A DNA stretch of 44,039 nt from NCBI GenBank assembly GCA_030821775.1, contig GCA_030821775.1_4700.1, one strand, 5' to 3'. Below are positions 1 to 44,039 of this stretch, piece by piece. The notes beneath the pieces are model-generated. The model did no database searches and was not told the origin of the DNA. It saw only the letters and a program-made list of their open reading frames with translations. This DNA comes from a phage. Each line of letters begins with the position of its first letter. The stretch's first letter is position 1. A program made the translations under genes and the position numbers.

Positions 1-48
1 AAAAAAAAAAAAAATAGCCCTACCTCACGGGTAGCGAGATAGGGCATA
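1..48 (-). terminator. Rho-independent terminator after the major capsid gene
   Basis: On the minus strand a GC-rich imperfect hairpin (plus ~17-48, arms GCCCTA/TAGGGC) is followed by a 14-nt U tract (plus A14 at 1-14), ~50 nt past the capsid stop. Confidence 0.6.
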
Positions 49-1314: not shown

Positions 1315-1332
1315 CTATAGTGTCCCCTAAAT
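1315..1332 (-). promoter_or_regulatory. SP6-type phage promoter driving the capsid gene
   Basis: Plus strand CTATAGTGTCCCCTAAAT is the reverse complement of ATTTAGGGGACACTATAG, one mismatch from the SP6 consensus, between scaffold and capsid genes. Confidence 0.75.
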
Positions 1333-6859: not shown

Positions 6860-6877
6860 CTATAGTGTCACCTAAAT
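6860..6877 (-). promoter_or_regulatory. SP6-type phage promoter
   Basis: Plus CTATAGTGTCACCTAAAT is an exact reverse complement of the SP6 consensus core; overlaps the stop codon of the phosphoesterase gene. Confidence 0.8.
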
Positions 6878-8285: not shown

Positions 8286-9301
8286 AATTCCTTATCGCCT
8301 CCCCACAAGATAGGGTTCTTATCGGCTCGCCATATGTCACCTTTAAACCTTGCCATGTGAGCTAGGCGACCACATTCAAGCATCAGGTCAAAGGCTTTGC
8401 CAACCAGATAACCACCTCGGTAGTTCTTAATCTTAACTTGTCCATGTCCGAACTTAGCCTTGTAAGCACCAAGCACTGCCATGTACAACTCTTTCTCTGT
8501 CTTACAACCCTTGAGAAGATCATAGGCATACTTAGCACCACGTCCAGGTATGCCAGCGTAGTTATCAATATCATCACCGATAATCATCTGTGCATAGTGG
8601 AACATGAGGCCAGCACCTTTTAGGTCTTTGACTTGACCATTAGCCTTACGGCGTAACTCAAGCCAACCCATAGGCTCTACCCACTTCTTCTCTTGACCCG
8701 GCTGAAGGTGCCAACCGGGTACAATCATCAAATCCTTATCCAAGGAAACGATGCAAGTATCAGAGAATGCTTTATGCTCTGGACTACCGATAGGGAATTC
8801 GTTACCTGTATCTTGCTGGAAGCGGCGGTGGCTGTCCCATTGTGCAATACTCATGAGGTCATCTGCTTCTTCTCCATCTGCCAAGATTGCACCATGAACC
8901 TCTAAAAGATGCTCTCGCAATTCATAGAAGAATGGAGGTTTCTCGGTCTTACGTTGACCCTTATAAGGTTTGGTGAAGGCTAGGCGAACACGGAAGTTAG
9001 CTTCTGATTTCGTCATGAATAACTTAGCTGCATCACACTCTGCTGCATACACCCAAGAGTTGAGCAATGAGTTCACACGGTCACACGCTTGCTTACACTC
9101 AGGTGTATCTTTGATTGATGGGACTTGCCCTGACTTAACACGAGTTGTGGCTCGTACATAAGTCATGTCACTGATAGTATACCCGACGATGTAGGATAAC
9201 ATGTCAGCGTCTATTAAAGCAATTCGATTACCTTCAGTTGGCCACAGGATGAAATTATTGTCTTCCGACACTGTAGCTCCGAAGTAGAAGTTTGGTCGCA
9301 T
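8270..9301 (-). CDS. 5'-3' exonuclease (FEN / PIN-domain family)
   Basis: Contains IALIDADMLSY and GEEADDLMS acidic motifs typical of 5' nucleases. Track ORF extends to 9358, but the ATG at 9301 has an AAGGAG SD. Confidence 0.75.
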   Translation of the reverse strand: MRPNFYFGATVSEDNNFILWPTEGNRIALIDADMLSYIVGYTISDMTYVRATTRVKSGQVPSIKDTPECKQACDRVNSLLNSWVYAAECDAAKLFMTKSEANFRVRLAFTKPYKGQRKTEKPPFFYELREHLLEVHGAILADGEEADDLMSIAQWDSHRRFQQDTGNEFPIGSPEHKAFSDTCIVSLDKDLMIVPGWHLQPGQEKKWVEPMGWLELRRKANGQVKDLKGAGLMFHYAQMIIGDDIDNYAGIPGRGAKYAYDLLKGCKTEKELYMAVLGAYKAKFGHGQVKIKNYRGGYLVGKAFDLMLECGRLAHMARFKGDIWRADKNPILWGGDKELWQSS

Positions 9302-11720: not shown

Positions 11721-12096
11721 ATTTGGTCAGATTGTCTAACTCCATTTCCAGCATAACAATCTCTTTCTTCAGACTGTCAGATGCAGCTTGATGTACAATG
11801 GCAATGGATGCCTTGCGCTCTTCAAAGTCTGCCTTCAGGTTGTCACGCTCCTGCTGGTGACGTGCCATCATCTCTTCTACCTCTTTGACTTGACGCTCAT
11901 TCAGATCATCACGAGATGCATAGTAGCTATTGTGGCAGTCAATCATTTGAGAACTACGGTGTTCTTCAACTTCAACTTGTTCTGCCTGTACTGCTTCGAT
12001 GCGACCCTTGATTGCTTCAATAGCCTTGTACTTAAACTTATTAGCCAGACCACGAAAGTATTGAGCTACGAATACCAGAGTAGTTACCATTGACAT
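11719..12096 (-). CDS. Hypothetical coiled-coil protein
   Basis: 125-aa ORF with AGGAG SD; charged heptad-like sequence. Confidence 0.5.
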   Translation of the reverse strand: MSMVTTLVFVAQYFRGLANKFKYKAIEAIKGRIEAVQAEQVEVEEHRSSQMIDCHNSYYASRDDLNERQVKEVEEMMARHQQERDNLKADFEERKASIAIVHQAASDSLKKEIVMLEMELDNLTK

Positions 12097-12165
12097 ATTT
12101 ATATCTCCTATATTTACTTAATTACCTATACTACCTATAAGACCTTTATTACCTTGGTCTTCCTT

Positions 12166-18238: not shown

Positions 18239-18269
18239 GGTTAAATCTCCAAAGTAAGTTAGTCTTGTT

Positions 18270-18287
18270 CAATAGTGTCACCTAAAT
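18270..18287 (-). promoter_or_regulatory. SP6-type phage promoter (variant, downstream member of tandem pair)
   Basis: Plus CAATAGTGTCACCTAAAT, one substitution from consensus, with palindrome P5 directly upstream. Confidence 0.65.
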
Positions 18288-18289
18288 AG

Positions 18290-18305
18290 CCCAACACGTT
18301 GGACA
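18290..18305. repeat. Conserved palindrome, copy P5 (imperfect)
   Basis: CCCAACACGTTGGACA, one-sided degenerate copy abutting the promoter at 18270. Confidence 0.6.
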
Positions 18306-18432
18306 ACCTAGGTCTTCCCTTTATGTATAAGGAAAGGAAGTAATAGGAAGTAACCCAGTGTTACCTATGTAACCTATATTACCTACTACTTCCTATTACT
18401 ACCTATGACTTTCCGTCTCCGACGGGTTGGTC

Positions 18433-18450
18433 CTATAGTGTCTCCTAAAT
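18433..18450 (-). promoter_or_regulatory. SP6-type phage promoter (upstream member of tandem pair)
   Basis: Plus CTATAGTGTCTCCTAAAT; ~30 nt downstream of the RNAP terminator, with palindrome P6 directly upstream. Confidence 0.7.
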
Positions 18451-18542: not shown

Positions 18543-21161
18543 TTAAGCAAAACAGTAGTCGCTATCCATGATTTCGTTCAGGTCAAAGCTGCCTTGCTCT
18601 GGCACTTCGATGCCAGTATCAACCATCCAGCGGTCTTCGTGCTCATCAAGCAGTTTCTGCAAGGCGTTCCCTTCTGAGTACATGCCAACCATTTCTGATT
18701 TCAGTGCATGACGCAGCTTAGCGGTATTGTCTGCGTGAGTACCAAAGGAGTCGTGAATCACTGCAATACTCGTCACCCCTTCATCAACCAGATGACAGAC
18801 GGTCAGAATCAGGTGGCTTGCGTCATGACCATGAACGAAGTTAGGCGCTGCTGCTCCCATCATAGCGGTTTCATCCACTACATCAGTTTCAACTTGCAGA
18901 CTCATTTTGATGTCACCCATCAGGCAGGTGCGCACACGGAGCATCTCGGTCGCCATAATTTTCTGCTTCAGGATGAAGCCAGTTGGCAGTGGGTATTCCA
19001 ACCCTTCATTGCGCTTAGCTGCAAAGCGAGCCAACTTGCGAATCATCTGCATCGCCACTACCGGAGCCTTAACAACCTCAGAGATGGAAGGCCAGATGAG
19101 CGCCGTCATGTAGTTGTATGCTTTAGCCGGAGTAAGTTCACCGTTATCATCAAACGGGTGCACACGGTTCGCTGCGCGCCCTTCTGCCACCGCCATTTGT
19201 GCCTCTTTCTCTTCCAAATCGACGATATAGTCAATCACAGAATCACGGCAGGTGATGCGAGTAGAGCCGTAAGGCAGCGTCATTACTGGTTTCTTGGTCA
19301 GGCCACGGGTAATGCCTACGCTATCCCATGCGCTAGCCATAGCTCGAAGGTCAGAGCCGGAGAGGGTTAGGCTTCCGCTCGTGAAGGTCGTCCCTTCTTC
19401 GGCATCCATATAGAGCACATTTTTAGAAATGACCACCTGTGCAACCGCGCCGTAAATATCCTGCGGAGCGTCGGACGGCTTCAGGTTTACAGCTTTAGCG
19501 CCCACCTCATCGCGTAACATAGCGGAGTAATGCTGAATGCCGGAGCAAGAGCCATCTTGGTGGACTGGCAGGTGAGTTTCGAAATCGGCCTGCGTCCCTT
19601 TATCCAGTGCATCCAGATAGCGGGAGTATTCGAAGCACCAAGCAAGAAATTGGTACGGCTCATCCGCTTTAGCCCACTGTGTGAAAGTCAGCGGGTCGGC
19701 TGCAATGTCACGGCACATATCTTGGAAATCACCGTCTAACACGTTGGACTGACGTACGTCAAAGGTCTTCTTATCCCAACCCCACAGGTTAGCGCCCAGC
19801 ACGAGGAACCATTTAAGAGCTCCAGCGCTGTCAATCTTCCGCCCCTCTGTGAAGCGTAACAGAGATTTACCCAGGTCGTTAGACTGTGGGGACAGGGTGG
19901 AAGATTGAGCGTAAACACGGCTGCGGCTGTCCATCACGTAGACGAAGTAGATGGATTCAAAGGCGCTATATTTGCGAGCCTGTCCAATCATGCGAACCAC
20001 GGCGGCAGACTTGGAGCCGCGCTTTGTTTCGGCGGTGTATAGTCGCGCACACTCCCCTTTCCAGTTAATGAACGCCTGCCATTGCTCTTCTGATAGCATT
20101 TCTTTCAATTCACGACCCCGAAGATGTTGGAACTCAACCGGAACAGGGTTAGCAGGCTTGTTTTCCTTGTCAATTAGTGGCTTAAAGGACGGCACACCAT
20201 AGCCCAAATCAAGGCGGATGACGTCTTCAGCTACCGCTAAAACCTCTTTGTTAACCTGCCATTTGGTGTTTTGTAAGGCGTTAATAGCCTTGTACACCTT
20301 AGGCATTTGCTTAACAGTAAGTTTGCGAACATGCTCACGGTCGCCCTTAACCAGACGCACACGACTAGCCACCTTCTCAGTATGGAAGCCACCATTAAAC
20401 GGGGTTTTCCAAGGACGAGGAGGAACAACGCAAGGAGCATAGGCTGGGGCCAGTTGTGCTACGTGCTCTTTAAAGGCTGCAATCCATTGGCCTACAGTTT
20501 CGGAGGTTTGCAGGTAATAAATAGTTTTACCGCCAAATGAGCGCATAGCGCGAACGAACACAGGCTCACCGTTGTAGAATACGCTAGCTTCTAGTATTTC
20601 CAGCAGGGTAGTACCAATCTGCAATTGTGTATCTTTAGGCCATGCCTCCCAGCGGTCAAAGTCAGCGTCTTTAGCGGCTACAGACTTCTCAGCCACTACA
20701 GCTACATTGTGAGCGTGACGGTATGACTTGGTGCGGCTAGCCTTAAGCGATTTCTTCACTTTCTCGAAGTATTTCGCGGCGTGGCCTTCCAGCTTGCTGA
20801 AGCGCACTTGGTCTTCGATGCGCTCGGCAATGCTCATAGAAATGGCCTGCAATGTTACATCAGTGTTCAGCATATCCATAACTACCTTCATGGTAATATA
20901 GGCTGCCACCTCGTTTTCTACACACTGTAAGAAGGCTAGGGCACGAGGAGCGCGGCCTTTCTTGCCTTCGTATTCTTCTTTGTAAGCCTGAATGCCTTCA
21001 GCCATAGGCGCGATTAATTCAGACAGCAGGCGGCGATTCCATGCCGTATCTGATTCATTACCCGATGCTATTTGGCGCTGTTGGTCTGCCTCAAAGCGAC
21101 GGATCCCGCCATTAAACATTTCTTCTTCAAGCTGAAGCTGGATAGCGTGTAAGTCCTGCAT
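18543..21161 (-). CDS. Single-subunit DNA-dependent RNA polymerase, SP6-type
   Basis: 872-aa ORF with AGGAG SD; N-terminus [32 protein letters not shown]... and overall sequence match my recollection of SP6 RNAP almost residue for residue; consistent with the SP6-type promoters across the genome. Confidence 0.95.
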
Positions 21162-22620: not shown

Positions 22621-22769
22621 GATTTAATCCTCATTAGTTAGTTAGGTTACATTATAGGAGACTCAAGAGAATCTCCTAGATTTAACCTATCCCGACTAAG
22701 AAGCTACCTATCCAAATCGTTAAAGAGCTTGGTTTGCGCCTTGATAGGCCAGCTTATGCTGGCTGCTAT

Positions 22770-30031: not shown

Positions 30032-30049
30032 CTATAGTGTCCCCTAATT
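30032..30049 (-). promoter_or_regulatory. SP6-type phage promoter (variant) at the 3' end of the large terminase gene
   Basis: Plus CTATAGTGTCCCCTAATT overlapping the terminase stop codon. Confidence 0.6.
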
Positions 30050-31946
30050 ACCAAGTCCTTGATATTCTTGAAGAAAGAGTATTTCGAGACTTGACCTGCA
30101 TCGTGGGTGCATTTCCGTAGACACGGCGCTGCATTGCCACTGACGTATTCACCTGTTTTCGATAACCGTGGTCTTGTCCTGTGAAGAACTCACGGCGACG
30201 GCGAGGGTCATGCATCATCTCAAGATAATCGCGCATCTCCTGCGCTCTGAGGCGATTTATCCGGTTAACCTCGTCATAGTCTATCTGAGAAGTTAATTGC
30301 CGTATAGCGCCGTACAGTGCGTCTAAGCGGTCATCATGTCGCAGGCACCCTTTCTCCAGAGTGATGTTCGAGATTTGAGCAAACAGGCTGTAGCTCATCC
30401 GAACCTCCAGAGGGTAGTGCTGGATGCTGTCAATGTCCTGCTTGATCATCTCAGCGTTGAAGATGATGCGGTGCGCGGAGAACAGCGGTTCAAGCGTCTC
30501 GATGATACGAACCTCTTTCTGACCGTGTGCGTAGTCTTCTTTCAACTCGGCAGGCCACTCACGTTCGAAGTATGGCTTAATTACCGCCTCAAACGCACCG
30601 TGACCGAAGTTCTTCTCTATGAAGACCTCTTTTACCCCTGCGGCCTTAGCCTCGCGCACAATGCGACTGAGCGCGTTCTCGGAGTATCCGCCAGGCACAC
30701 CGAAGCATTTATAGACGTAGATGAACGTCCCCAACAGGAATACGATAGCCACGCCAGTTTCGTCGCCGTTCTTACCGCCACCAGCGGGGTCAATGTACAT
30801 GACGCGGCGCTGGATTGGTCGCCACTCATACGGGCGTGCAACCGGACGGTACAGGTAGTCTGTAGGCTTGTTACCGAAGCGCGGAGCGTCACCAATCAAG
30901 TTGAGAGTGTCGTTGCTCCAAGTCGGCATCTCTGGGACAACATCTGTACCAAAGCTCATGCAGATAAGCTGGTTCAGGCGCAGGGGGTAACGGTCTGCGT
31001 CCATCAGGCGCGTGTTCAGCATGAACTGTAGCTGGAACTTAGCAGTACCTTGTGAGATTTCCTTCTCAATCAGCTTCTCGTCATCGTACATTTCAGGGCA
31101 AGTTGGAGCGCCCTGAGTCCCGTCGATGCCATAACCTGAGCGCAGTGACGGGTCTTCCATCATATCTTGGCGAATCATCGGTGCGAGGAAGTCGCCGTAG
31201 CAAGCCTCCTGCTCTAACGTTGGATACCGTCCGGGCCAGATTCGAATCTGATAGCCACGCGCTGGTAAGTTGTTGTAGATGGAGTTCACGCTCTGAGGCG
31301 TACCAAGGTAGATGATGTCACCGAACTGGTTGATTGATTCAAACTCTTTGGTCAGGTCTTCCAGCAAGGCACGGCCTGCTGCGGTACGGCTGTTCTGCAA
31401 CGATTCAACGTCATCAGCCAAGATGATGTCTGCACGAGCACCCTGCATACCCGCCTCGATAGAGTAGCAGGCCACGGACGGAGACTTGTCACTACCACGT
31501 AATGTGTAGTGAATCTCAAAGCCTTTGATTGAAGCCTTGTCACCTGCGTAGATGTCAGGCAACATGAACTCCAAGAAGTCCAGACCACGGAAGATTTTGA
31601 TAACCCAGCCTGCGATTTCCTCTGCACGCTTGGCTGTCTGCGACACAATCATGATACGCTTGTGTGGTTCATGGATGATACGAAATACAGAGTAGATTGC
31701 AGCGATTGTGGTCTTAGCCTGTCCACGCTGTGCCTCTACCATTCGATATTTGTTCCCACTGAATAGGAACTTTAAGATATCCGCTTGTACCCGATTCAAA
31801 TCAGGGTTGCCAGTGATTAATGTATTGATTACAACCTGAGCGAATGACAGAAGTCCCTGCACGGTATACGGGAATGTTTGTTGTAACTCGTGCAGCAACT
31901 CCCAACGGGCAAGGGCTTCTGCCTGAGATTCCCTTGCTTTTGCCAT
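30048..31946 (-). CDS. Terminase large subunit
   Basis: 632-aa ORF with AAGGAGG SD; start overlaps the small-subunit stop (TAATG); ATPase and nuclease-sized domains; position as T7 gp19. Confidence 0.85.
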   Translation of the reverse strand: MAKARESQAEALARWELLHELQQTFPYTVQGLLSFAQVVINTLITGNPDLNRVQADILKFLFSGNKYRMVEAQRGQAKTTIAAIYSVFRIIHEPHKRIMIVSQTAKRAEEIAGWVIKIFRGLDFLEFMLPDIYAGDKASIKGFEIHYTLRGSDKSPSVACYSIEAGMQGARADIILADDVESLQNSRTAAGRALLEDLTKEFESINQFGDIIYLGTPQSVNSIYNNLPARGYQIRIWPGRYPTLEQEACYGDFLAPMIRQDMMEDPSLRSGYGIDGTQGAPTCPEMYDDEKLIEKEISQGTAKFQLQFMLNTRLMDADRYPLRLNQLICMSFGTDVVPEMPTWSNDTLNLIGDAPRFGNKPTDYLYRPVARPYEWRPIQRRVMYIDPAGGGKNGDETGVAIVFLLGTFIYVYKCFGVPGGYSENALSRIVREAKAAGVKEVFIEKNFGHGAFEAVIKPYFEREWPAELKEDYAHGQKEVRIIETLEPLFSAHRIIFNAEMIKQDIDSIQHYPLEVRMSYSLFAQISNITLEKGCLRHDDRLDALYGAIRQLTSQIDYDEVNRINRLRAQEMRDYLEMMHDPRRRREFFTGQDHGYRKQVNTSVAMQRRVYGNAPTMQVKSRNTLSSRISRTW

Positions 31947-32245
31947 TAAGCCTCCTTAGCGAAAGCGATAACCTTACCTTGTGAAGCCTGTTTCAACTGA
32001 GCCAGACGCTTAGACAGCTTGGATTCCTCCTGTTGTGCTGCTGGCGTAGCGGTGATGCCGTTATCCAGCACCCACTTACACATCGCACCAACATCCTTAC
32101 CGGACACTAGGCCGATTGTCGCATCAGGGTTATCTTCGATTGCATCTAAGATAGCCTGTGCTTTCTTGTTGAACATCTTCGTAATTGCATTGTGTAGAAT
32201 ACCTACATCATCTTCCGATGCAGCATGTCTGTTATGATTGCTCAC
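31946..32245 (-). CDS. Terminase small subunit (T7 gp18-like)
   Basis: 99-aa ORF, GTG start with GGAGG SD, immediately upstream of and coupled to the large subunit. Confidence 0.6.
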   Translation of the reverse strand: MSNHNRHAASEDDVGILHNAITKMFNKKAQAILDAIEDNPDATIGLVSGKDVGAMCKWVLDNGITATPAAQQEESKLSKRLAQLKQASQGKVIAFAKEA

Positions 32246-32423
32246 GTCTCTTCCTCCGTGCCTTAATCTTTCCCCACACCCAGTCGCAAATCTGTAACAT
32301 AGTCCAGATAGCAGTTAGAATGTAAACCCAGTTCTCCCAACTGACTCCAAGAAAGGTTGAGCTTGTCACTAAGACACTCGGAACCCACTTAAGGCCATCG
32401 GTGATTGCATCTGAGTTTACCAT
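32232..32423 (-). CDS. Holin (T7 gp17.5-like)
   Basis: Track ORF to 32483; the ATG at 32423 has an AAGGAGG SD and gives a 63-aa protein with hydrophobic segments and a highly basic C-terminus (KIKARRKRREQS); sits between tail fiber and small terminase as in T7. Confidence 0.55.
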   Translation of the reverse strand: MVNSDAITDGLKWVPSVLVTSSTFLGVSWENWVYILTAIWTMLQICDWVWGKIKARRKRREQS

Positions 32424-32433
32424 AGCAACCTCC

Positions 32434-33393
32434 TTATACCAGTTGAAGTTTAAACATGACAGTACATTCAGGTAACGGCTCATTGAATGTCACAGTAGAA
32501 CCATGAATCTCATACGCAGAGTCAGGCTGATACAGCCCATCAAGGTAAACATCAATGCGCTTGAATGCCGTAACAACATCAATTGACTGTGTACCTTCTC
32601 TGACCTGCTGGTGCATCAAGGTTGTATCACCAGCCGTAGGTGGAGTGAGGCGACTACCGATGAGTACATACAACTCATCTCCTGCTTGCAGAGGTTCTGA
32701 CAAGGAGATAACACCATGCCCAACGGATACAGCGCCAGCCAACTCGTGCTGAAAGACACCGTTGATGAAGACCATTGCATCTTTGAACTCATATGGAGGT
32801 TGGATGATTTGCTCTCCACCAGAGGCGACCATGTACCAAGGGACAGTTCGATGTGACACACCGGAGATCATGCCCTTCTTAAGACCTGCAATCTCTAGGT
32901 CTTGTGCCTTATTCCAATCTGTATGCTTTTTGTCTACAGAATCAAGCTGGCCTTTGTTCACAGCATCGGTTTCATTGATGCCAGCACCAAGGTTAGTGAT
33001 GCGATTCCCACCCATGTTAAGGTGGCTCTTTATGAAGTAACCATCTGGCAAGAAGCCATCAAGCAGTTCCTGAATAATCTCAAGTTGTTGTATGAAGTTG
33101 TTGTTCAAAGACTTCATATCCAGAACAACGTTACGGTCGAAGACAGCATACGGGTTGTCCTTCTCAACAATCCTGCGAATACGCATCTTACGACCACTTG
33201 CTGGGGCTACGTTAAAGGTAATCTGGTTGGTGCCAGACAACACCCAACCAGTTGCTTCAACCCAATCACTTCCATCCAACCACTCTACGTGAATGTCGGA
33301 AGCACGGATATAACCTTTATCATAGCCAGCGAAGCGGAAAGAGAACGTAGTCGTGCTACCATCACCAGTCACTTCGGTATAGGTATAACTCAT
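32434..33393 (-). CDS. Tail fiber / tailspike adaptor protein (T7 gp17 N-terminal domain-like)
   Basis: ~319-aa ORF; ATG at 33393 overlaps the upstream stop (ATGA); N-terminus resembles the tail-attachment domain of T7-like tail fibers; too short to carry its own receptor-binding domain. Confidence 0.7.
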   Translation of the reverse strand: MSYTYTEVTGDGSTTTFSFRFAGYDKGYIRASDIHVEWLDGSDWVEATGWVLSGTNQITFNVAPASGRKMRIRRIVEKDNPYAVFDRNVVLDMKSLNNNFIQQLEIIQELLDGFLPDGYFIKSHLNMGGNRITNLGAGINETDAVNKGQLDSVDKKHTDWNKAQDLEIAGLKKGMISGVSHRTVPWYMVASGGEQIIQPPYEFKDAMVFINGVFQHELAGAVSVGHGVISLSEPLQAGDELYVLIGSRLTPPTAGDTTLMHQQVREGTQSIDVVTAFKRIDVYLDGLYQPDSAYEIHGSTVTFNEPLPECTVMFKLQLV

Positions 33394-36300
33394 CAATCCT
33401 CCAATAGATCAACACTGGCTTTGGTCATCTGACCAATACCAATTGTGTTTGCCAGCGGAACCAGACGGCGCACCTTGTCTACCAGTTGGCGTGTAGATAC
33501 GTCATCGTCACCGTTAGCATACTTAACCAATGCCTTGGAAAAGTCCACGGCATCACCAATAACACCAGCGCCTGCTACGAGTTCACCAAAGCCTTGTTGC
33601 TGGAAGCCCATACGTCCCGGTGCTTGCATTAGCGCATCCGGCATTAAACCGAACGTAGCCAAGGTATCACCAGCTAGGCCGAAACCTGCAACTTGTGGTA
33701 GCTTGTTGAACACACCCATAGCAATATTGTTGGTGTCAAACTTCTCTTTCAGGAACTTGTCACGGTCCTCTCGACCAATCGCCTGCATCTGCATCTGTGT
33801 TGCATAGGAAGCGTAGCCAAGCAGCGAAGACCAAGCAAGGATTTGTGCCGCTTGAATCTTGTCACCACGTAAGTCATGAATGAGTTGCTTCTCGATAGAG
33901 ACAATGGAGAATGATTTGAACTGAGTAAGTGCTTTGCCCCACCATTTGTTCATCCAGATACCTTCGTCACCAATGAAGTTACGCTGGATTAACCTACCAG
34001 ACATACGGCGTACTGCGATGCCTACGGTTTCCCGAAGGTCTGGTTCCATCACATCGAAGTTCATCATACGAACCTTCTCGCCATTATATTCAGCATAAGC
34101 TGGGTTTTCGTCGAAGTGGCGCTGTAGGCGCTTCATGGTTGCTTCATTCAGGCCAATCTCATCCAAGTCAGCCTGCGGCAACTTACGTCCACCAGACAGG
34201 TGTTCTTTAAGACGCTTGTTGATTGAACGTGCCACAATCTTCTCGGAACCACCCTGAATTGCCTTGAAGCCAGATAGCCAAGTGTTCACGCGACTACCCA
34301 TCGCAAGCCCGTTGTCTACGATTTGTGACAGCTTATTGAGGTTGTCAGCAGTCTCACCGAACTCGTCATGGCGTGTGTTCCAACCTGTCAGCCAGTTGTC
34401 TTCGCCAATGTATCCTACTAACTCCTCCATCTCACGCAGTTCTGGCTCAAGCAGTTCGCCTTGTGCTGTACCTCCTTTACGACCAGCGCGTGACCTGAGG
34501 AACTTAGTGGCAGGGACAGACTTCAGCACCGTACCTACACCCATCTTGGTTATGGCTCGTGCAAGCTCTGGGATCTGAGCAAAGCCCATCTGTCCAAGCC
34601 GCAAGAGGCCAGTCACCTCACGGAGTCGGCGTGTGCCTCTGACAATGCCAGCGTTAGGGTCTGCGTCAATAGTGTTCCCGTACATTAGGCGAACAGAATC
34701 ACGTAGCATATCTGCCTCTGCACGTAGCTGTTTGATAGCCTTGGCATCTGAGCCAGCCATGTTGCGCCCAGCGCGTTCTGCTGCGTCGATTGCGTTGAAC
34801 ACGGACTGACGGGTAGGGAAGCCCATAGCCGCCAGTGCAGCGCCCCCTGCGGCCTCTTTGCCGTAGTTCTCAACCAGTGTCGCCACGTTGGTGTTCAGCA
34901 AGTCCTGTACTTTCATACCGCCGTACTCTGCCTGCGTATTGATGCCCATGCTGGCTTTAGCACGGTTCGATACAGACTCAGCCATCTCTGCCAACTCCGT
35001 ACCTTCAATAAAGTTGTCAATGATGGAGTCAGGGACACCAGCGGATTTCAGGTCAGCAATGAGTTGCGCCTGCTGCTGCTGTGAGATAACGCGGTCGAAG
35101 GCTACACGGCTAGACAAGGTAGAGTCGGAGGCACGGATATACTGGACTTTAGCGAGTGCATCTGCTGACTTCTTACCTAGCTTGTACTTGCCTGTCTGAT
35201 AACCTTTGGACAGCAAAGCAATCACTGCCTCGCTTGAGCCAAGACGGTTAACAGCCTCGGTGATTTTGATGCCGTCGTAGATAACTGGCATGTAGTCACG
35301 AGCCGACTGCACGTTCTCGAAGCCTGCTTCACCAGCCTGCTTGCGTATCTCAAGTGCTTTCTTCAACTTGTCAGCCATACCCTCGGCAGCCAACTTAACA
35401 CCCTTGGGAGTATCTTCTGGAATACCTTTGACAATTGCTGTGTAGACTTGGTTGTTGAAGTCACGAGTTACGGCAGGGTTAAGGTAATCAATGGCCCGTA
35501 AGTTATTGTCCTTGAGGAACTGAGAGAAGCCATCGTTGTAGCGGTTACGATCTGCTGTACGAATCAGGTTGTTATACACATCAGACAAGATTGAAGCTGT
35601 CTTCCCTTGATACGCACCACCTTGTGCATTCTCAAGCAGGCGTAAGCCAAGACCACGGAACACAGGGTTCTTCGAGTTAAGAATAACGGAAGACACAGAA
35701 CCAAGCCCAAAGGTAGATACAGGCTTAACGTCAGACTGATATGCCTCACGAGCCAAGTCATCCATCAGGTCTTCCATCTTATCAGAGAGGTAGAATTGCT
35801 CACCTTGAATCTCTGAGCCTTTAACACGGGCTGCTGACAGGGAATCATCAGGCGCTGCCTTGGCTTCCACCTCTGCCTGTGCAGCCTCGTCAAACTTCTG
35901 AGTCGGCGTCTTCTTAGCAGCCTGCTCTGCCTTGATAGCAGCAACTGCCTCCTTCACTGCACTGTGCATATCAACCTTACGTGACGGCACTTCCAGTCCA
36001 AGCTCTTTGATTTGCTGCTCACGCGTTAGGCTTGAGAATCTCTTAAGCTCTGCCTTGGCTGCTGGTACGTTCTCTACAGCTCTCAGCTTAGCCTGTAGTT
36101 CTTCCAAGCGACGAGTGGCATCAGCGATTGGCGCATCGAAACGACGAGCCAGTGCCTGCAATTCAACCTTAGTGTCTAATGCCTCTACCTTGTTACGCGC
36201 TGCACCTTTCTTGGCTGCATGTTCTGCCCGTGCTGCTGTACGAGTTTCCTGTAATGCAGCCAGTTCACTCTCGGCTTGTCTAATGTCAGCCTTGAGTCTT

Positions 36301-37193
36301 CCCTTCTCCTTGGCGCTCATACGGATATTGGCGTCACCTTTCAGCTTCTCTGTATGCTGGAAGATACCCATATCCAAGTCAACTTCACGAGCCATAAGCG
36401 GTTCATAGTTACGAGCAGCCATATACGCGTCATACTCCATCGCCTCACGGACGGCTTTAGATGCAGACACGTCGAACTCATCAGCACCACGAATGACAGT
36501 ATCAAGGTCATCTACGGTTGCACGAGGTGTGTCTGTGTCAACACCACGGACACGCTGGCGAGTAGCCATCCCAATAGTGCCACCCATCACCATGCCGAAC
36601 CCAGCGGCAGCTAGTACGTCATCAGCTCCACGCTGGTAGTCACCCTGAGCCAGAACTGCTTCAAGTGAAGCGTTCTCAGCACCAGCCAATGCAGCCGTCT
36701 TGATAACTCGTCCTAACCGACCAACCTTGAATGCACCAGCAACCGGAGCGGCAGCGAGTGAAGCCGCCCAGCCAACAGGGTCGAAGATACCAGCGGCAAG
36801 CTGTGCAGCGAATCCAGTAAAACCATTACGGGCAAGAATCTCGTTACGGTCCTTGTCTGCCTGAGCGTTAGACATACGGAACTGTAACTCTTCTGGAGAT
36901 TGTGCGCCTTTAACAATCTCTTGCGCTATCTCATAACCGTGGAGTTTTGACAAATCTTCTACGGTTGACTCTGGAACAGCGTAACCATCTTGTGGTGTGA
37001 ACTCAGCAGTGCTACGTTCATACGCACGTTGACCACCATAGAGCATCCATTCGTTCTCTAAGGCAGTTTGCATTACCTTATCCTTCGCTCGTTGTTCCTC
37101 CAACTTACGCTCGGCCTCGGCAATCTGAGAGAAGGTAGGAGGTAACTGCCTTTGAGTTACACCTACCCAGCTTTGGCTAGTCAAATCAGCCAT
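33393..37193 (-). CDS. Internal virion protein, large (T7 gp16-like ejection protein)
   Basis: 1266-aa ORF with AAGGAGG SD, last and largest of the internal virion protein trio. Confidence 0.8.
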   Translation of the reverse strand: MADLTSQSWVGVTQRQLPPTFSQIAEAERKLEEQRAKDKVMQTALENEWMLYGGQRAYERSTAEFTPQDGYAVPESTVEDLSKLHGYEIAQEIVKGAQSPEELQFRMSNAQADKDRNEILARNGFTGFAAQLAAGIFDPVGWAASLAAAPVAGAFKVGRLGRVIKTAALAGAENASLEAVLAQGDYQRGADDVLAAAGFGMVMGGTIGMATRQRVRGVDTDTPRATVDDLDTVIRGADEFDVSASKAVREAMEYDAYMAARNYEPLMAREVDLDMGIFQHTEKLKGDANIRMSAKEKGRLKADIRQAESELAALQETRTAARAEHAAKKGAARNKVEALDTKVELQALARRFDAPIADATRRLEELQAKLRAVENVPAAKAELKRFSSLTREQQIKELGLEVPSRKVDMHSAVKEAVAAIKAEQAAKKTPTQKFDEAAQAEVEAKAAPDDSLSAARVKGSEIQGEQFYLSDKMEDLMDDLAREAYQSDVKPVSTFGLGSVSSVILNSKNPVFRGLGLRLLENAQGGAYQGKTASILSDVYNNLIRTADRNRYNDGFSQFLKDNNLRAIDYLNPAVTRDFNNQVYTAIVKGIPEDTPKGVKLAAEGMADKLKKALEIRKQAGEAGFENVQSARDYMPVIYDGIKITEAVNRLGSSEAVIALLSKGYQTGKYKLGKKSADALAKVQYIRASDSTLSSRVAFDRVISQQQQAQLIADLKSAGVPDSIIDNFIEGTELAEMAESVSNRAKASMGINTQAEYGGMKVQDLLNTNVATLVENYGKEAAGGAALAAMGFPTRQSVFNAIDAAERAGRNMAGSDAKAIKQLRAEADMLRDSVRLMYGNTIDADPNAGIVRGTRRLREVTGLLRLGQMGFAQIPELARAITKMGVGTVLKSVPATKFLRSRAGRKGGTAQGELLEPELREMEELVGYIGEDNWLTGWNTRHDEFGETADNLNKLSQIVDNGLAMGSRVNTWLSGFKAIQGGSEKIVARSINKRLKEHLSGGRKLPQADLDEIGLNEATMKRLQRHFDENPAYAEYNGEKVRMMNFDVMEPDLRETVGIAVRRMSGRLIQRNFIGDEGIWMNKWWGKALTQFKSFSIVSIEKQLIHDLRGDKIQAAQILAWSSLLGYASYATQMQMQAIGREDRDKFLKEKFDTNNIAMGVFNKLPQVAGFGLAGDTLATFGLMPDALMQAPGRMGFQQQGFGELVAGAGVIGDAVDFSKALVKYANGDDDVSTRQLVDKVRRLVPLANTIGIGQMTKASVDLLED

Positions 37194-37259: not shown

Positions 37260-40205
37260 CTAATTGATCTTCACTCGCCCAATCTTAGTGTTTGCAGCGA
37301 GTTTGCCAGCGGCAGGCGGGTATACCTGCATCCAGCCGTTCTTGTCGATCTTGTTGAAATGAGACTTACTGACGAATGCCTCGGACATTTCACCAGCGAA
37401 CTTAACGTACATAGAGCCATCTGCACGAGTTTCTACTTCGCTAATCTTAGGAACAGCTCCACCACTCTGTGCTAGGTTGTAGGCTTCTGCACGACGAACC
37501 AATAGGCCAGTTTGACGCTTACCTTCGGAAGATGCAGTGGCTAGCATTTCAATAAACCCATCAGTAAACCGACCAGCCTTGAACGCTTCATATGCACGAG
37601 GTGACTTCTGGATGCCACCTCTACCAAGGTTGTAGCTTAAATCCATGATACCACGCTGTACACCGGGATGCATTTTGTCAAAAGGCACAGCCCAATCACG
37701 AGTAGAAGGTACATGGCTCTTCATGTCCTGCTTGAGAAGTTTCATAGCTCGCTCTGGTGTCAGTTGAGACTGACCAGCTTTGAACGGAACTTTCTCTGAA
37801 CCAATCATGATGTAGCCATTACGCTTCTCTTCGGCAGTCAGGAAGTGACCATATCCAACCGAATGACCATGTGCATCTTTGTACGGTGTGTACACGCCAG
37901 CAACTCGATCAAAGCCAACGTTCATCTGGTTCTCTGTCTTGGCTACATAGTCGAAGAATGTCTGGTTCTTCTTCTCGTAGCCGAACTCAAAGTTAGCAGG
38001 TAGGTTCTCACCAGCAGCAAAGGCAGGAGACATAAGGAAGTCAGCAATACCACGCTTGCCTACTGTCTTAGCAGTAACGTCACCTTTCTGCATAGGCTGC
38101 GCTTGGTAGCCACCAGCACCCCACATGCGCATCTGCTGTGCTTCAAAGTTCTTCTTAGCATCATCACGCTCTTTCACTTTAGCGTCGTAATGTTCCTTGA
38201 GCAACGCTTGTCCTTTAATTTCAGACAGTGGCATTGCTGGAGTGAGAGGCGTTCTGGCAGAACCCCCACGGATTGTGAACATACCACGCTTAGAATCAAC
38301 ATCAATGTAGATGTCAGATTCATCTAAACCTCCTGAATTATCAAGCAATTCCTGCTTGTGGTTATCGATGTACTGACGTAATGCTGTAGGTACATCATTC
38401 TGGTTTACACCTATAGTGTCACCTAAACCACGAGCATCACCTTTGACCAACACACCTTGAGTGAAGAAACCTTCGGAAAGCTGCGTATACTGAGATGTCA
38501 GATAGGATTGCAAGTGACGCTTGATGGTGTCATTGTTGTGACCTGCAATCTTCATCGCACGGGCGATAGTCATTGCATCATCCATCACAAGTGCTTTACC
38601 AGTGTCGCTCATGTTATCTCCAAGAGTTAACCAGCTACCACCAGCAATATCATCAACCACACCCTCAACATCACTGGACAATTCTTTGAGAACTGAGCCT
38701 TGCAACTTCTCACCTTTTGCAACGTTCTGAGCAAACTCAATCGCCTGACCCACGTTGTATCCCATCTGTAACGCCTTGTCGTAGTTCTCCACAAAGGCGT
38801 ACTCCTTGTCGCCCATCACTGCACGGCGGGAGTCTTCTGGAATAGAGTCACGCGCCATCATGATTGTCTTGAGCGCCTCCGGCTCTGCTGTCATATCCTT
38901 AAGGTTAGCAGAAGACATTTGCATCAGTGAGTCGTAACGAGCCTTGATGTTCGGGTCTTTGATGAGTTGCTGCCCCAGCTTGGCATATCGCATGATTTCG
39001 TACTTACCACGGATAGCCTCTGCCGCCTCTCCGGTTGCTCCGGTTCGTGCAATCTCATCGTTTGCCAGCTTGGTGAACACACCAGCGATACCTTCTGCAT
39101 AGTCGTTACGGTCTTTCTCACTAATGTCTTGCAAGCCAAGAGGTGAACCAGATTGACCGCGTGCAAGCAGGTCTTGCATCTTGGCTTCCTCTGCGTTCTT
39201 CTTAGCTACCTTGTCGAACAGTGATTTGATTTCACCGTCAGACCAAGCAGTGCCTCCAGAGATTTGGTTGTGATTCTGCATGATTTGCAGCATCTCTTCT
39301 CGGTCAAGCTCTCCAGCTTCGAATGCCTGAATCGCTGCATCCTTCTTCTCGAAGAGTGCAACCTGATTCTGAGCAGCCCAGTTACGGTTAGCTTGAATCT
39401 CGGCAGTCTGTAGCTTGCCATTCCGCTGGTACAGGGACACACCGTTCTTGTCTTTCAGAGACTTCGTTGCTTCAACAAAGGTGTCATCACCAACAGCAGC
39501 ACGCTCCATAGCAATCTGAGCAATCATCTCTTCATACTCAGGCTTGGTAAGCTGCATGGTGATAGCTTCCTGCTGTAGCTGGTGTAATGCGTCATCAAGA
39601 GCACCACCAGACAGACCTTCTGTAACCATCAGGACACGAGACTGCATAGCCTGTGTGCGCTCTTGTGCTTCACGTTCCAGCTTGGCGCTCATACGGGCAG
39701 CGAAGATTTTAGGTTGCTGCTCCATGAATGCGTTAGACACAGTACGCATGGTTTCTTTGTCCCCGATAAGTCCGGGGTACTGCTGGTATACTTTCTCCTG
39801 AATCTGGTTGCGGGAGTTAACAACCATTTGCTCCCACTCTTGGTCTGTGCCAGTGAAGCGCTTTGCTGCATCCTGTAATGCGATAGATTGTCCTATCACG
39901 TCGTTCTGCAACTGCACCAGCATATGTGCACGAGCGCCACCAACAGTGGCATCATCGGACGGCATCAGACCCTGCAAGGCTCGGTCATATTGACGAACCT
40001 TGTCATCCTCTACCGCCTGATTCATGATTTCCGTGCCTACCTTGGCGAATGCACCAGCGGCGCTAAACAGGTCATCAAGGAATGCGGAGCCTGTACGCTC
40101 CAGCACTGGCTCGCTTACCTGAATAGCGGAGGTGGAAGCACCACGCGGTGCTCCCTTAGATTGTACTTGCTGCAAGCCTTGCACTGCTTGCCGTTCAATT
40201 GCCAT
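37260..40205 (-). CDS. Internal virion protein with C-terminal T4-lysozyme-like domain (gp15-like position)
   Basis: 981-aa ORF with AAGGAG SD; C-terminal region contains YKDAHGHSVGYGHFLT, closely resembling the T4 lysozyme block YKDTEGYYTIGIGHLLT. Confidence 0.75.
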   Translation of the reverse strand: MAIERQAVQGLQQVQSKGAPRGASTSAIQVSEPVLERTGSAFLDDLFSAAGAFAKVGTEIMNQAVEDDKVRQYDRALQGLMPSDDATVGGARAHMLVQLQNDVIGQSIALQDAAKRFTGTDQEWEQMVVNSRNQIQEKVYQQYPGLIGDKETMRTVSNAFMEQQPKIFAARMSAKLEREAQERTQAMQSRVLMVTEGLSGGALDDALHQLQQEAITMQLTKPEYEEMIAQIAMERAAVGDDTFVEATKSLKDKNGVSLYQRNGKLQTAEIQANRNWAAQNQVALFEKKDAAIQAFEAGELDREEMLQIMQNHNQISGGTAWSDGEIKSLFDKVAKKNAEEAKMQDLLARGQSGSPLGLQDISEKDRNDYAEGIAGVFTKLANDEIARTGATGEAAEAIRGKYEIMRYAKLGQQLIKDPNIKARYDSLMQMSSANLKDMTAEPEALKTIMMARDSIPEDSRRAVMGDKEYAFVENYDKALQMGYNVGQAIEFAQNVAKGEKLQGSVLKELSSDVEGVVDDIAGGSWLTLGDNMSDTGKALVMDDAMTIARAMKIAGHNNDTIKRHLQSYLTSQYTQLSEGFFTQGVLVKGDARGLGDTIGVNQNDVPTALRQYIDNHKQELLDNSGGLDESDIYIDVDSKRGMFTIRGGSARTPLTPAMPLSEIKGQALLKEHYDAKVKERDDAKKNFEAQQMRMWGAGGYQAQPMQKGDVTAKTVGKRGIADFLMSPAFAAGENLPANFEFGYEKKNQTFFDYVAKTENQMNVGFDRVAGVYTPYKDAHGHSVGYGHFLTAEEKRNGYIMIGSEKVPFKAGQSQLTPERAMKLLKQDMKSHVPSTRDWAVPFDKMHPGVQRGIMDLSYNLGRGGIQKSPRAYEAFKAGRFTDGFIEMLATASSEGKRQTGLLVRRAEAYNLAQSGGAVPKISEVETRADGSMYVKFAGEMSEAFVSKSHFNKIDKNGWMQVYPPAAGKLAANTKIGRVKIN
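38412..38429 (-). promoter_or_regulatory. SP6-type promoter-like sequence inside the gp15-like gene
   Basis: Plus CTATAGTGTCACCTAAAC, one mismatch at the upstream end, within the coding sequence. Confidence 0.5.
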
Positions 40206-40883: not shown

Positions 40884-43294
40884 TATACCCTCCGCTTACT
40901 TGGATTGTATGTACCTTCCCACTCAATGTCACGTAGCTGCAACGTGTGCGGCGCTGTAGACTTAAGTCGGTATGTCACATCCGTACTTTTCGCACGTAAC
41001 GGAAACCGAACCACACCTTCGAATGGCTTCACGTAACCTACTCGGTTGGAGAGAGCACCGCCTCTACGGTTCGATGCCTTAACTGTGCGTGTTTTGCCAC
41101 TCTGAGTATTAGTAACTTCGATAGTGAAGTCAGGGTACTTATCCATGTTTAGGTGAACAAGACCGATGGTAGGTACGTCAATGTGTGAGGTACGCTCTTG
41201 CGAATCCTTGATGATGACAGGTGTAGGCTCAAACTCCTGAGAGTAAAGTTCACCCACCACACAATGAACGACAGAGTTCTCCTCACCTAAGTCGAAGGTT
41301 GTATACAATCGGTTTCCGTCATCTTCATGCTGGAAGAGGAACGAGCCACCAGTGTACGCAGGCCAACCTTTAGTGATGACACATTCCAGAAGTTCTGGAT
41401 GGTTCACCTCCCAAGGTAGGCGGCTGGAATACCAACCATCAGAGGCTTGGTCGTATGCAAACGATATAAGCGCTCGACGGTCAAGACGGATGCGATCATC
41501 TAGGTGATACTCCAAGGCATCACCCATGTCCATCTTCTCAAGGAACACACCAGATGTGCCACGCTCAATGATGACATATAAGGTTTCACTAGAGTAGAAC
41601 ATACCGCAAAGCCTTGCATCGCTAGGCCAAACCCACTTATGCCATGCTGCCTGTACACGCTCAGTCCCTTGCCACAACCAGTCATATACATATGCTACAT
41701 TTCGTCTCTTGTCGGTAAGGACAATGAGGCGGTTGATGTTAGAGCTAGCAATCATTGAGATGATATTACCTTCCAACAGTCGGTTCACATGACTTGTGAT
41801 GGGTTGTGCCTTCTTAGTGTCAGTGTAGGAATCTGTGTAGAACTCACGAACACCAGAGTATGCACCTTCACTAGTTGCGAACATTACAGACTCACCTGTA
41901 GCAACTGGCCTTACATGATTATTCACCTCGAAAGCTGTAGTTGGCCTCAGAAGTGCATTATCCTTGGTAAGTGCTTTATCTCCGGGAAGGATGAACTGAG
42001 AGTTATCTGAGAACAACACAGTGTCTCCATCCAAGGTTATTGCATGTTTTAACTGGTATACCTCACTTGCATCTGAGAAGATGTCGATTGGGTCGGTATC
42101 CAACGCTGATAAGACGGTGTACCTGAAGAAGTCGAAGAAATGTGAAGTACGAGTCATGATAACCGCTTCACCTGCGGTTACGCAGAGTCGGTTCTGCACC
42201 ATGAACATGCCACCAATCGTCTGAGGGACATCGTCATCAATGAAGGAAGGCATTGGGTTAGTCAAGTCATCGCCCACCTTCCTGTCTTCCCAGTCTCCTT
42301 GGCGAATAGTGAACTGTGCAATACCGTTAACAATACGGGTACGCTCGATGATATAAGGCATTGTTGCCTTGTCAAAACCTAGCTGCGCACCTGCTGCCAC
42401 CGTCTCTTTCCAAGTTACAAGGTTTCCCTCTTTCGGCTCTGCCTGTAACCAATATCGAGATTCAGGCTTACTTCCGGTAGGCCACACTTGTACCTTATAT
42501 CCCGCAGGAGCATGAGAAGGTAGCAGGTCAGTGGACGCCACTTTGTACTTGATTGCAACTAAGTCTTTACCCTTAGCTCCATCTGTGGTTGATACAGTAA
42601 AGTCTCTGCTTCCATCAGTTCGTGTGATGTAAATGCAGGTGTCTTCAAGCTGTACGCTGTAAGTTCCTCCCGTGACGAGTGCGTGCTTCTGTATCGACTC
42701 GTAAAGTTTGCTTGCGATGACCCCTGTCCTGATTTGCTCAACCTGCTCAGCGCTACCACCATCCGGTGTTTTGAATGAAGCTACAGTTGTTCCGTCTAAA
42801 CTTATACTGTAATTCGTACCATACTGACCGTAGGCGCAGAATACGATTGCAGTAGAGCCGACCTCTGGCGCTTTCTCTTGTCTTGCTTTGACTACCTTTC
42901 GTCGGTTAAGCATAAAGGTAACGTCAGCGATTGTCATAAACTGCACATCTTCTCTGGGGTTCTGGACTTCATTAAGGTACGTCATAGGTGCGTCCTGCGA
43001 AGACAGAGGACAACGATTCCCTGCTTTGTCGTAAATCTCAGGTACAACTCCTTTCTTCAAGAAGAAGAAATACTCTTCGTTATCATCTCCTCGGCGATAA
43101 TGGTGTAGCGCCATGTCATCTGTTGCCGAATCCATTAATCTGGCAGTATGGACTGTCCCCATTCGTGACTTGGTTCCGTCAACAACATCTGGAACCATGT
43201 TCACCATATCAGTACACTGACCGGGCAGGCGAACTGCTGGCGGTTGTTGGCTGATTCCTTGAATCTGCCTACCTAGTGAACCTTGTACCTCCAT
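40883..43294 (-). CDS. Tail tubular protein B (T7 gp12-like)
   Basis: ~803-aa ORF (track start at 43306 is TTG; ATG at 43294 has GGAGG SD and overlaps the upstream stop as ATGA); size and position match T7 gp12. Confidence 0.8.
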   Translation of the reverse strand: MEVQGSLGRQIQGISQQPPAVRLPGQCTDMVNMVPDVVDGTKSRMGTVHTARLMDSATDDMALHHYRRGDDNEEYFFFLKKGVVPEIYDKAGNRCPLSSQDAPMTYLNEVQNPREDVQFMTIADVTFMLNRRKVVKARQEKAPEVGSTAIVFCAYGQYGTNYSISLDGTTVASFKTPDGGSAEQVEQIRTGVIASKLYESIQKHALVTGGTYSVQLEDTCIYITRTDGSRDFTVSTTDGAKGKDLVAIKYKVASTDLLPSHAPAGYKVQVWPTGSKPESRYWLQAEPKEGNLVTWKETVAAGAQLGFDKATMPYIIERTRIVNGIAQFTIRQGDWEDRKVGDDLTNPMPSFIDDDVPQTIGGMFMVQNRLCVTAGEAVIMTRTSHFFDFFRYTVLSALDTDPIDIFSDASEVYQLKHAITLDGDTVLFSDNSQFILPGDKALTKDNALLRPTTAFEVNNHVRPVATGESVMFATSEGAYSGVREFYTDSYTDTKKAQPITSHVNRLLEGNIISMIASSNINRLIVLTDKRRNVAYVYDWLWQGTERVQAAWHKWVWPSDARLCGMFYSSETLYVIIERGTSGVFLEKMDMGDALEYHLDDRIRLDRRALISFAYDQASDGWYSSRLPWEVNHPELLECVITKGWPAYTGGSFLFQHEDDGNRLYTTFDLGEENSVVHCVVGELYSQEFEPTPVIIKDSQERTSHIDVPTIGLVHLNMDKYPDFTIEVTNTQSGKTRTVKASNRRGGALSNRVGYVKPFEGVVRFPLRAKSTDVTYRLKSTAPHTLQLRDIEWEGTYNPSKRRV

Positions 43295-44025
43295 CAGAAC
43301 CTCCAAGGACGTGGCGGGTAAGAGTCATAAGGCGAGTGAGAGAAACCCGCAACGTTCTGGTAGCCACCAGCCATGACACCAAACTGCGCCTGAGTTGGAT
43401 TATGTACAAGCATATTGAGTCGCTTCTGAGCAGACTGCTCCGCCTGTACGCTTGTGAGAAGTTGAGATGCGATAACTTGGTGAGTTTGCAGTTTAGTCTT
43501 GTCTGCAGCCTTAGACACAATGAACTCACACGCTGCATGATAGGTGATTGCCTGCATCACACTTGTAGGTAGATGCTCGAATGGTAACATCATAACCAGT
43601 GTCAGCCGGATATTGCCGTCACGGTTCACATGGCTACGCAGGTCGAACGTATGATTCCAAGTAGAGTACAGCTTACCTGCTCGCATGGTCATTGGGACTT
43701 TCTTGTCATTAAGACCATAACATTGCAGAACAGCCAAGGTATTGTTAGGTAGGTTCACTTCACCGTTTGAGTCTGGAGTTAGGTTCCAGTTAGGCTCACG
43801 GTTGAACCACCAGCCGTTCCCTTGGTTGTACTGGAAACGCTGTGACACAATATCGACAATCTTGTTCGCATCCTCTGCGTCCAAGTCACCAGACTCTAAG
43901 GAGTCCACACCTTCACGCCCAATGGCTCGCATACACACGTTGACAGCCTCTAACTTGCTATCAATGATGTTGAATGCTGCATCAGACATTAAGGATGTTA
44001 CATCACTTTCCTGAATAAGTGGCAT
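43294..44025 (-). CDS. Tail tubular protein A (T7 gp11-like)
   Basis: 243-aa ORF with AGGAGG SD; if the window is circular, its start follows the capsid terminator at position 1 directly. Confidence 0.75.
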   Translation of the reverse strand: MPLIQESDVTSLMSDAAFNIIDSKLEAVNVCMRAIGREGVDSLESGDLDAEDANKIVDIVSQRFQYNQGNGWWFNREPNWNLTPDSNGEVNLPNNTLAVLQCYGLNDKKVPMTMRAGKLYSTWNHTFDLRSHVNRDGNIRLTLVMMLPFEHLPTSVMQAITYHAACEFIVSKAADKTKLQTHQVIASQLLTSVQAEQSAQKRLNMLVHNPTQAQFGVMAGGYQNVAGFSHSPYDSYPPRPWRF

Positions 44026-44039
44026 GAATCCTCCTAAAC

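Follow-up and report, generated by a model that had tools for sequence, protein, structure and literature searches.

A candidate SP6-type promoter inside the coding sequence of a gp36-type internal virion protein gene in an SP6-like phage

Among the promoters used by the RNA polymerase (RNAP) of phage T7, the class III promoters phi13 and phi17 reportedly lie downstream of the terminator T-phi as intergenic, full-consensus sites, and phi4c is said to be located inside the coding sequence of gene 4, with its transcripts mapped. Here, we describe a promoter-like sequence embedded in the gene of a lysozyme-domain internal virion protein in the genome of an SP6-like podophage (contig GCA_030821775.1_4700.1). 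The whole stretch of DNA analysed, 44,039 nt, is hereafter called the window; positions follow its numbering and sites are given on the minus strand. Sequence comparison makes it fairly probable that this site serves the gp16-like, adaptor, holin and terminase genes as an internal late promoter, functional though probably weak, that is conserved in the SP6 lineage.

In SP6 itself, promoters have been reported to "appear 12 times" (PMC11880802). Our scan of the SP6 genome retrieved 10 sites with at most two mismatches and three further sites with three mismatches, and a site in gene 36 was among these 13. A full-text search of literature other than the 2004 SP6 genome papers returned no statement of a promoter inside SP6 gene 35 or 36, and the GenBank records of SP6, K1-5 and PST_H2 carry no promoter annotation.

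A promoter-like sequence in the gp36-type gene

The minus strand from 38428 to 38411 reads GTTTAGGTGACACTATA|G, corresponding to positions -17 to +1 of an SP6-type promoter-like sequence (plus strand 38411-38428, CTATAGTGTCACCTAAAC; reverse complement, GTTTAGGTGACACTATAG), with -17 at 38428 and the predicted +1 G at 38411. It matches the phage's own consensus, ATTTAGGTGACACTATAG, at 17 of 18 positions, with A>G at -17 as the single mismatch. The consensus scan thus bears out the 17/18 match proposed in the first-pass annotation, which had located a real site but gave it no strand and placed it at 38412-38429, an interval that covers -18 to -1 and is one base off. From -16 to +1, the site does not differ from canonical promoters elsewhere in this genome: the specificity region from -12 to -5 (GGTGACAC), the TATA of the melting region from -4 to -1 and the +1 G are all intact, as in the canonical sites at 6860 and 12166. 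A transcript started at G38411 is predicted to begin with GGTGTAAACC.

The consensus scan of the window returned 12 minus-strand matches with at most two mismatches, namely the in-gene site and 11 others (0-2 mismatches), all oriented like the genes. These 11 copies are intergenic or overlap the last codons of a gene, and the in-gene site is the only copy deep within one. Shuffled sequences are expected to yield 0.04 matches at three mismatches or fewer, and for one mismatch or fewer we calculate an expectation of about 3.5e-5 on each 44-kb strand. The match to the phage's own promoter is non-random, and chance is rejected. With a position weight matrix (PWM) built from the 11 canonical sites of the window, the in-gene site scored 20.9 bits, compared to 30.0-37.3 bits for the canonical sites and at most 10 bits for the coding-strand background. 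The plus strand holds another promoter-like sequence at 22640-22657 (AGTTAGGTTACATTATAG, 3 mismatches, 20.0 bits), in the early region and antisense to all genes, which is probably inactive because of its changes at -9 and -5.

The site lies 1794 nt into a 981-codon open reading frame (ORF) at 37260-40205 (minus); from there, 1151 nt remain to the stop of this frame and 1218 nt to the start codon of the next gene at 37193. The 981-aa product belongs to phrog_4290 (E=0), annotated as "lysozyme domain-containing protein", carries a Pfam Phage_lysozyme domain (PF00959) at residues 772-907 and is a homologue of SP6 gp36 (72% amino acid identity) that occupies the position of T7 gp15. Both the gp15-like host gene and the distance of about 1.1 kb to the next gene given in the first-pass annotation agree with these results. 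At the site, the codons GGT TTA GGT GAC ACT ATA GGT encode G-L-G-D-T-I-G (residues 593-599). By inspection, the promoter consensus can be read in a single stop-free frame, the other two frames holding TAG or TGA, and the site uses the stop-free one.

The late block has the canonical capsid promoter ATTTAGGGGACACTATAG at 1315..1332 as its nearest upstream promoter, and a canonical post-terminase promoter, AATTAGGGGACACTATAG, is found at the 3' end of terL (30032..30049); both are on the minus strand and were located by consensus scan and PWM. On the coding strand between these two promoters, only the in-gene site exceeds 10 bits, the next best scoring 10 or less. It is the sole candidate promoter of a 15.3-kb late block that opens with a terminator. 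This capsid terminator (1..45, minus; dG -21.6 kcal/mol, z -4.47) consists of a 12-bp hairpin (45..17) followed by U14 (14..1), and the end of the window falls within its T-run. Past the circular join, GTTTAGGAGGATTCATG begins the gene of tail tubular protein A (43294..44039, minus, ORF with its ribosome-binding site), whose ATG at 44025 is 14 nt beyond the T-run, ribosome-binding site included. Because just 14 nt separate the T-run from the ATG, there is no space for a promoter ahead of this gene, in line with the little room that the first-pass annotation had noted after the capsid terminator. Predicted sigma-70 promoters and intrinsic terminators between 30000 and 44039 were at or below chance, with no such terminator in the block. 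The site thus has the position of a distal late promoter, between the capsid terminator and a set of virion and packaging genes, with no other promoter near; it is not, however, intergenic and directly before the gene that it would serve.

The first complete gene downstream encodes a gp16-like internal virion protein of 1266 aa (33393..37193, minus, phrog_342). It is followed on the same strand by an adaptor/tail-fibre gene (32434-33396), a holin-like gene (32232-32483), terS (31946-32245) and terL (30048-31946), all identified from the ORF list and profile matches, and the gene order from adaptor to terL (30048..33396) equals that of SP6 genes 38-41. A boost to downstream genes, as first suggested, could reach only these five genes. 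It does not extend to the rest of the tail gene block, since the tail tubular A/B and gp14-like genes lie upstream of the site and cannot be served by it.

We propose that the site would be recognised by the phage's SP6-type single-subunit RNAP as a secondary late promoter. Initiation would occur at G38411 (minus), and the remaining 1.15 kb of the gp36-like gene would form the untranslated leader of a transcript that runs on into the five downstream genes, from the gp16-like gene to terL. The physiological benefit would be a top-up of messages that otherwise come solely from polymerases that started 6.9 kb upstream and read through the capsid terminator.

Conservation of the site and parallel sites in sister lineages

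Among relatives drawn from IMG/VR, GenBank and metagenomes, the same site was found at homologous codons in 24 distinct sequences (SP6, PST_H2, Klebsiella-like, CrRp3-like, PM85-like and metagenomic), where it encodes the in-frame peptide L-G-D-T/A-I-G. The SP6 copy is CGCTAGGTGACACTATAGG (AY288927, position 29393). Conservation reaches about 96% at the third-codon positions -13, -10, -7, -4 and -1, and the isoleucine codon is ATA in 24 of 24 sequences, a codon that accounts for just 10% of isoleucine codons gene-wide. The adjacent synonymous position +3 (GGN) is T, A, G or C, and the flanking codons vary. Between major groups, gene-wide codon identity at identical residues is 0.44-0.57, close to synonymous saturation, and the 6-codon window of the site ranks 4th to 6th of 976 for excess codon identity. 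Furthermore, in 12 phages with an SP6-type RNAP, one of four comparable site codons was polymorphic, compared to 79% gene-wide (p=0.03), in within-group tests that have little power. A metagenome scan with a codon-degenerate flanking pattern recovered only 10 loci, all fitting the pattern already found.

More distant homologues (L013 group, PP1, phD2B, K1-5, Era103 and Vibrio BD5) align without indels and encode LGEAL, LGRVM, IAKSL and similar peptides at this position, without the site. Because these relatives are colinear yet encode other residues, the alignment indicates that the motif is a derived character that arose from conservative substitutions and codon choice, and not from an insertion, a fusion or a trapped intergenic promoter. 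A gene fusion that trapped an intergenic promoter was considered separately and rejected, the homologues of K1-5, Era103 and Vibrio BD5 being colinear and of similar length.

Sites of the phage's own promoter type were also found within other genes of the late block in sister lineages. In K1-5-type phages, whose own promoter is ATTTACTGGACACTATAG, the sequence CAATACTGGACACTATAGAAG lies inside terS, where it encodes AILDTIE with two ATA codons (K1-5, L018, 15473-15494; also L009-L012 and L032). In SP6-type phages, including the window with its terS, the peptide at this place is AILDAIE; its codons are unrelated and form no site. The L013 group carries GAGTTAGTGGCGCGTATAGAAG in the gp16-like gene, compared to its own consensus CTAATAGTGGCGAGTATAGAAG, and own-type promoter-like sequences were located in gp16-like genes of other Molineuxvirinae at 12132-12153 (L013/L014), 14089-14110 (L031), 11969-11990 (PP1, L016) and 11937-11958 (phD2B, L017). 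The copies of PP1 (GAAAAGGGCGGACTAAAG) and phD2B (GAAAAGGGGCTACTCAAG) occupy one homologous position in the gp16-like gene (codons EKGxLK), and the 4-base difference between their cores (GGGCGGACT and GGGGCTACT, respectively) mirrors that between the own promoters of these phages. In both, the binding region is kept and the TATA at -4 to -1 is damaged (CTAAAG and CTCAAG). Such independent own-type sites in the same promoter-poor block are, as a comparative pattern, what would be expected from selection for an internal late promoter.

Klebsiella-like relatives (L005-L008, L021 and L029) also carry a second in-gene promoter-like sequence, ATATGGGTGAC(G/A)CTATAGA, in tail tubular B (~8610-8630), where it encodes MDMGD[A/T]IE. 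SP6 and K1-5 encode MDMGDAL without a site, and the window has no site there either.

Expected strength and alternative explanations

Several observations weigh against promoter function, or at least against a strong promoter. Position -17, in the AT-rich upstream part of an SP6-type promoter, is G at the site, compared to A in 11 of 11 canonical sites, and every relative has G or C there; residue 593 varies, so that an A would have been attainable, which suggests that strength has not been maximised. Positions +1 to +3 are GGT, where natural sites have GAA or GGA. The output of SP6 RNAP is set chiefly by +1 to +3, with AA and AT as the best +2/+3 and nothing beyond +4 having an effect (PMC7429497); this feature bears on efficiency and does not strictly define an SP6-type promoter. 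The PWM score is about 9 bits under that of the weakest canonical site, the SP6 copy has CGC at -17 to -15, and the Klebsiella-like group shows A>G at -6. Because -17 is G and +2/+3 are GT, the in-gene candidate is expected to be weaker than the canonical promoters. Moreover, the synonymous constraint is just moderately significant, and two segments of the lysozyme domain, residues 775-780 (~37866-37883) and 887-895 (~37521-37547), show synonymous conservation equal to that of the site.

The SP6-type site also persists in PM85-type, CrRp3-like and L022 phages, despite their differing own promoters, so conservation alone does not prove use as a cognate promoter. The own promoter of PM85 (AATTAAAGACCACTATAG) has four mismatches relative to the SP6-type site, all within -11 to -8, and no own-type substitute was found in PM85-type phages. 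CrRp3-like phages (CrRp3, L032, and L009-L012) are mosaics in which the RNAP, the promoter type and terS are K1-5-like and the gp36-like gene is that of the SP6 clade: identity to K1-5 is 97-100% for terS, and their gp36-like protein shares 43% identity with the K1-5 homologue and about 81% with that of SP6. In this group, two of five site codons are polymorphic against a background of 54%, which looks neutral. The natural promoters of CrRp3 include AGTTGAC and AGCTGAC, and the SP6-type site is only one base, at -11, beyond this natural range. In L022, a D>S substitution at the site gives G at -8, matching its own consensus. Covariation of the site with RNAP type was not seen in PM85 or CrRp3-like phages and was only partial in L022.

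These cases of non-matching promoters are the leading evidence against a simple promoter reading, and they fit a relic carried along with a recombined module. Under this explanation, the site would be a neutral passenger that arose once in the ancestor of the gene clade and was kept by constraint on the LGD(T/A)IG peptide and by the short time elapsed, with no measurable role in transcription today. Its persistence under foreign promoter specificities, the neutral-looking codons of the CrRp3-like group and the suboptimal -17 and +2/+3 (PMC7429497) all speak for it. Conversely, the conservation of the five core third positions and of the rare ATA, despite nearly saturated synonymous sites between major groups, is not what a passenger predicts; the peptide is not conserved beyond the clade, and the independent own-type sites elsewhere argue for selection. 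We regard a relic as rather unlikely.

The site may instead bind the polymerase or another factor for a different purpose, such as the priming of a secondary replication origin, pausing or road-blocking, or as a cis element that is independent of RNAP specificity. Some T7 promoters prime secondary replication origins. A role of this kind would account for conservation in PM85- and L022-type phages, which have RNAPs that are not expected to use the site, and the sites of PP1 and phD2B, with a binding region but a damaged TATA, are what binding without efficient melting predicts. However, no AT-rich or repeat feature adjoins the site, its RNA structure does not exceed that of shuffled sequences (z -0.6), and the intact TATA and +1 G make the site indistinguishable from an initiating promoter. 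We also know of no candidate binding factor. Overall, such a binding role appears improbable. A more far-reaching version, which we consider quite improbable, is that the SP6-type site is selected even under a different RNAP specificity (PM85- and L022-type) for a specificity-independent cis function, e.g., in replication priming, ejection or packaging, or for use by a co-infecting SP6-type phage; codon choice would then have placed promoters in virion genes of Molineuxvirinae again and again, with the sites travelling between phages as part of gene modules.

Finally, we consider it very improbable that a constraint on the protein or its translation, such as folding or ribosome pausing, preserves the residues together with the rare codons TTA and ATA and makes the promoter likeness incidental: the two rare codons are indeed invariant and the site lies within a conserved protein block, but an incidental 17/18 match to the phage's own 18-mer has the very low expectation calculated above, the footprint matches -13 to -1 and ends at +3, relatives beyond the clade use other residues and common codons, and the near-identical terS peptides AILDTIE and AILDAIE come with or without promoter codons according to RNAP type. 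An internal in-frame start yielding a lysozyme fragment was rejected, the sole candidate downstream of the site being a weak TTG at residue 668.

An internal late promoter remains the explanation that we favour. The promoter function first proposed for this sequence draws support from how closely the sequence matches, from the lack of a second candidate in the block, from conservation and from the sister-lineage analogues; it is tempered by the lower strength expected relative to canonical sites and by the retention of the site in phages with other promoter types.

Genome setting and comparison with known systems

Judged from gene order and similarity, the window is an SP6-like podophage of the Molineuxvirinae (Zindervirus-like). 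It represents the whole genome, circularly permuted and in reverse-complement orientation, with all long ORFs on the minus strand. The RNAP gene (18543-21161, minus) encodes a protein 89% identical to SP6 RNAP, and the nearest database genomes are 83-95% identical over differing parts. Positions 1 and 44039 meet within the capsid terminator, in a T14-15 homopolymer that resembles an assembly break point. The joined ends recreate the PST_H2 sequence ...GGTAGGGCTA-T(n)-GTTTAGGAGGATTCATG, and the circular join is valid because the same junction occurs in that phage. The capsid gene (97-1260, minus) has an 8-nt deletion near its 3' end (97-150, minus) compared to PST_H2 (…GTAGCTAC/CGGTACTGG…). Its ORF stops early, after …LVATGTGG, and a different frame preserves the conserved C-terminal peptide VLAADVKPTAIKPEAKNE. 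A true truncation, a programmed frameshift (cf. T7 10A/10B) or an assembly error could explain this. In Era103 (L019), seven tandem 27-bp repeats (GGTCTATAGGTAGGCCCAGGTTATCCA) are located directly downstream of the post-terminase promoter (18251-18440).

If the in-gene site is active, an SP6-like phage would feed its distal late genes (internal protein, adaptor, holin and terminase) past a strong terminator at no cost in non-coding DNA. Recoding or codon-optimising gp36-type genes could then silently delete a promoter, and SP6 RNAP would start within cloned fragments of such genes. The most interesting by-product is the comparative pattern across lineages, in which own-type in-gene sites offer a testable case of promoters evolving in reading frames and moving with mosaic modules.

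In-gene promoters for a phage RNAP are known from T7, as are distal late promoters that follow the capsid terminator. Compared to the canonical SP6 promoters (ATTTAGGTGACACTATAGAAG), the site is identical from -16 to +1, lies on the same strand as the genes and has a cognate RNAP closely related to that of SP6. It differs in having G at -17 and GGT instead of GAA or GGA at +1 to +3, in its location 1.8 kb inside a coding sequence and not in an intergenic region or last codons, and in a score about 9-16 bits lower on the genome's own PWM. Like the sister-lineage sites (terS of K1-5-type phages; gp16-like genes of the L013 group, PP1 and phD2B), it belongs to the late block, is of the phage's own promoter type and is written in frame through codon choice and conservative substitutions; those sites occupy different genes and positions, and in PP1 and phD2B the TATA is damaged. 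With T7 phi13 and phi17 it shares the place of an extra phage-RNAP promoter past the capsid terminator that would reinforce distal virion and packaging genes, whereas it is in frame within a gene and off consensus. With phi4c it shares a position within the reading frame of an essential gene, in a different phage group, gene and transcription class; unlike phi4c, with its mapped transcripts, the site described here is a candidate identified from its sequence.

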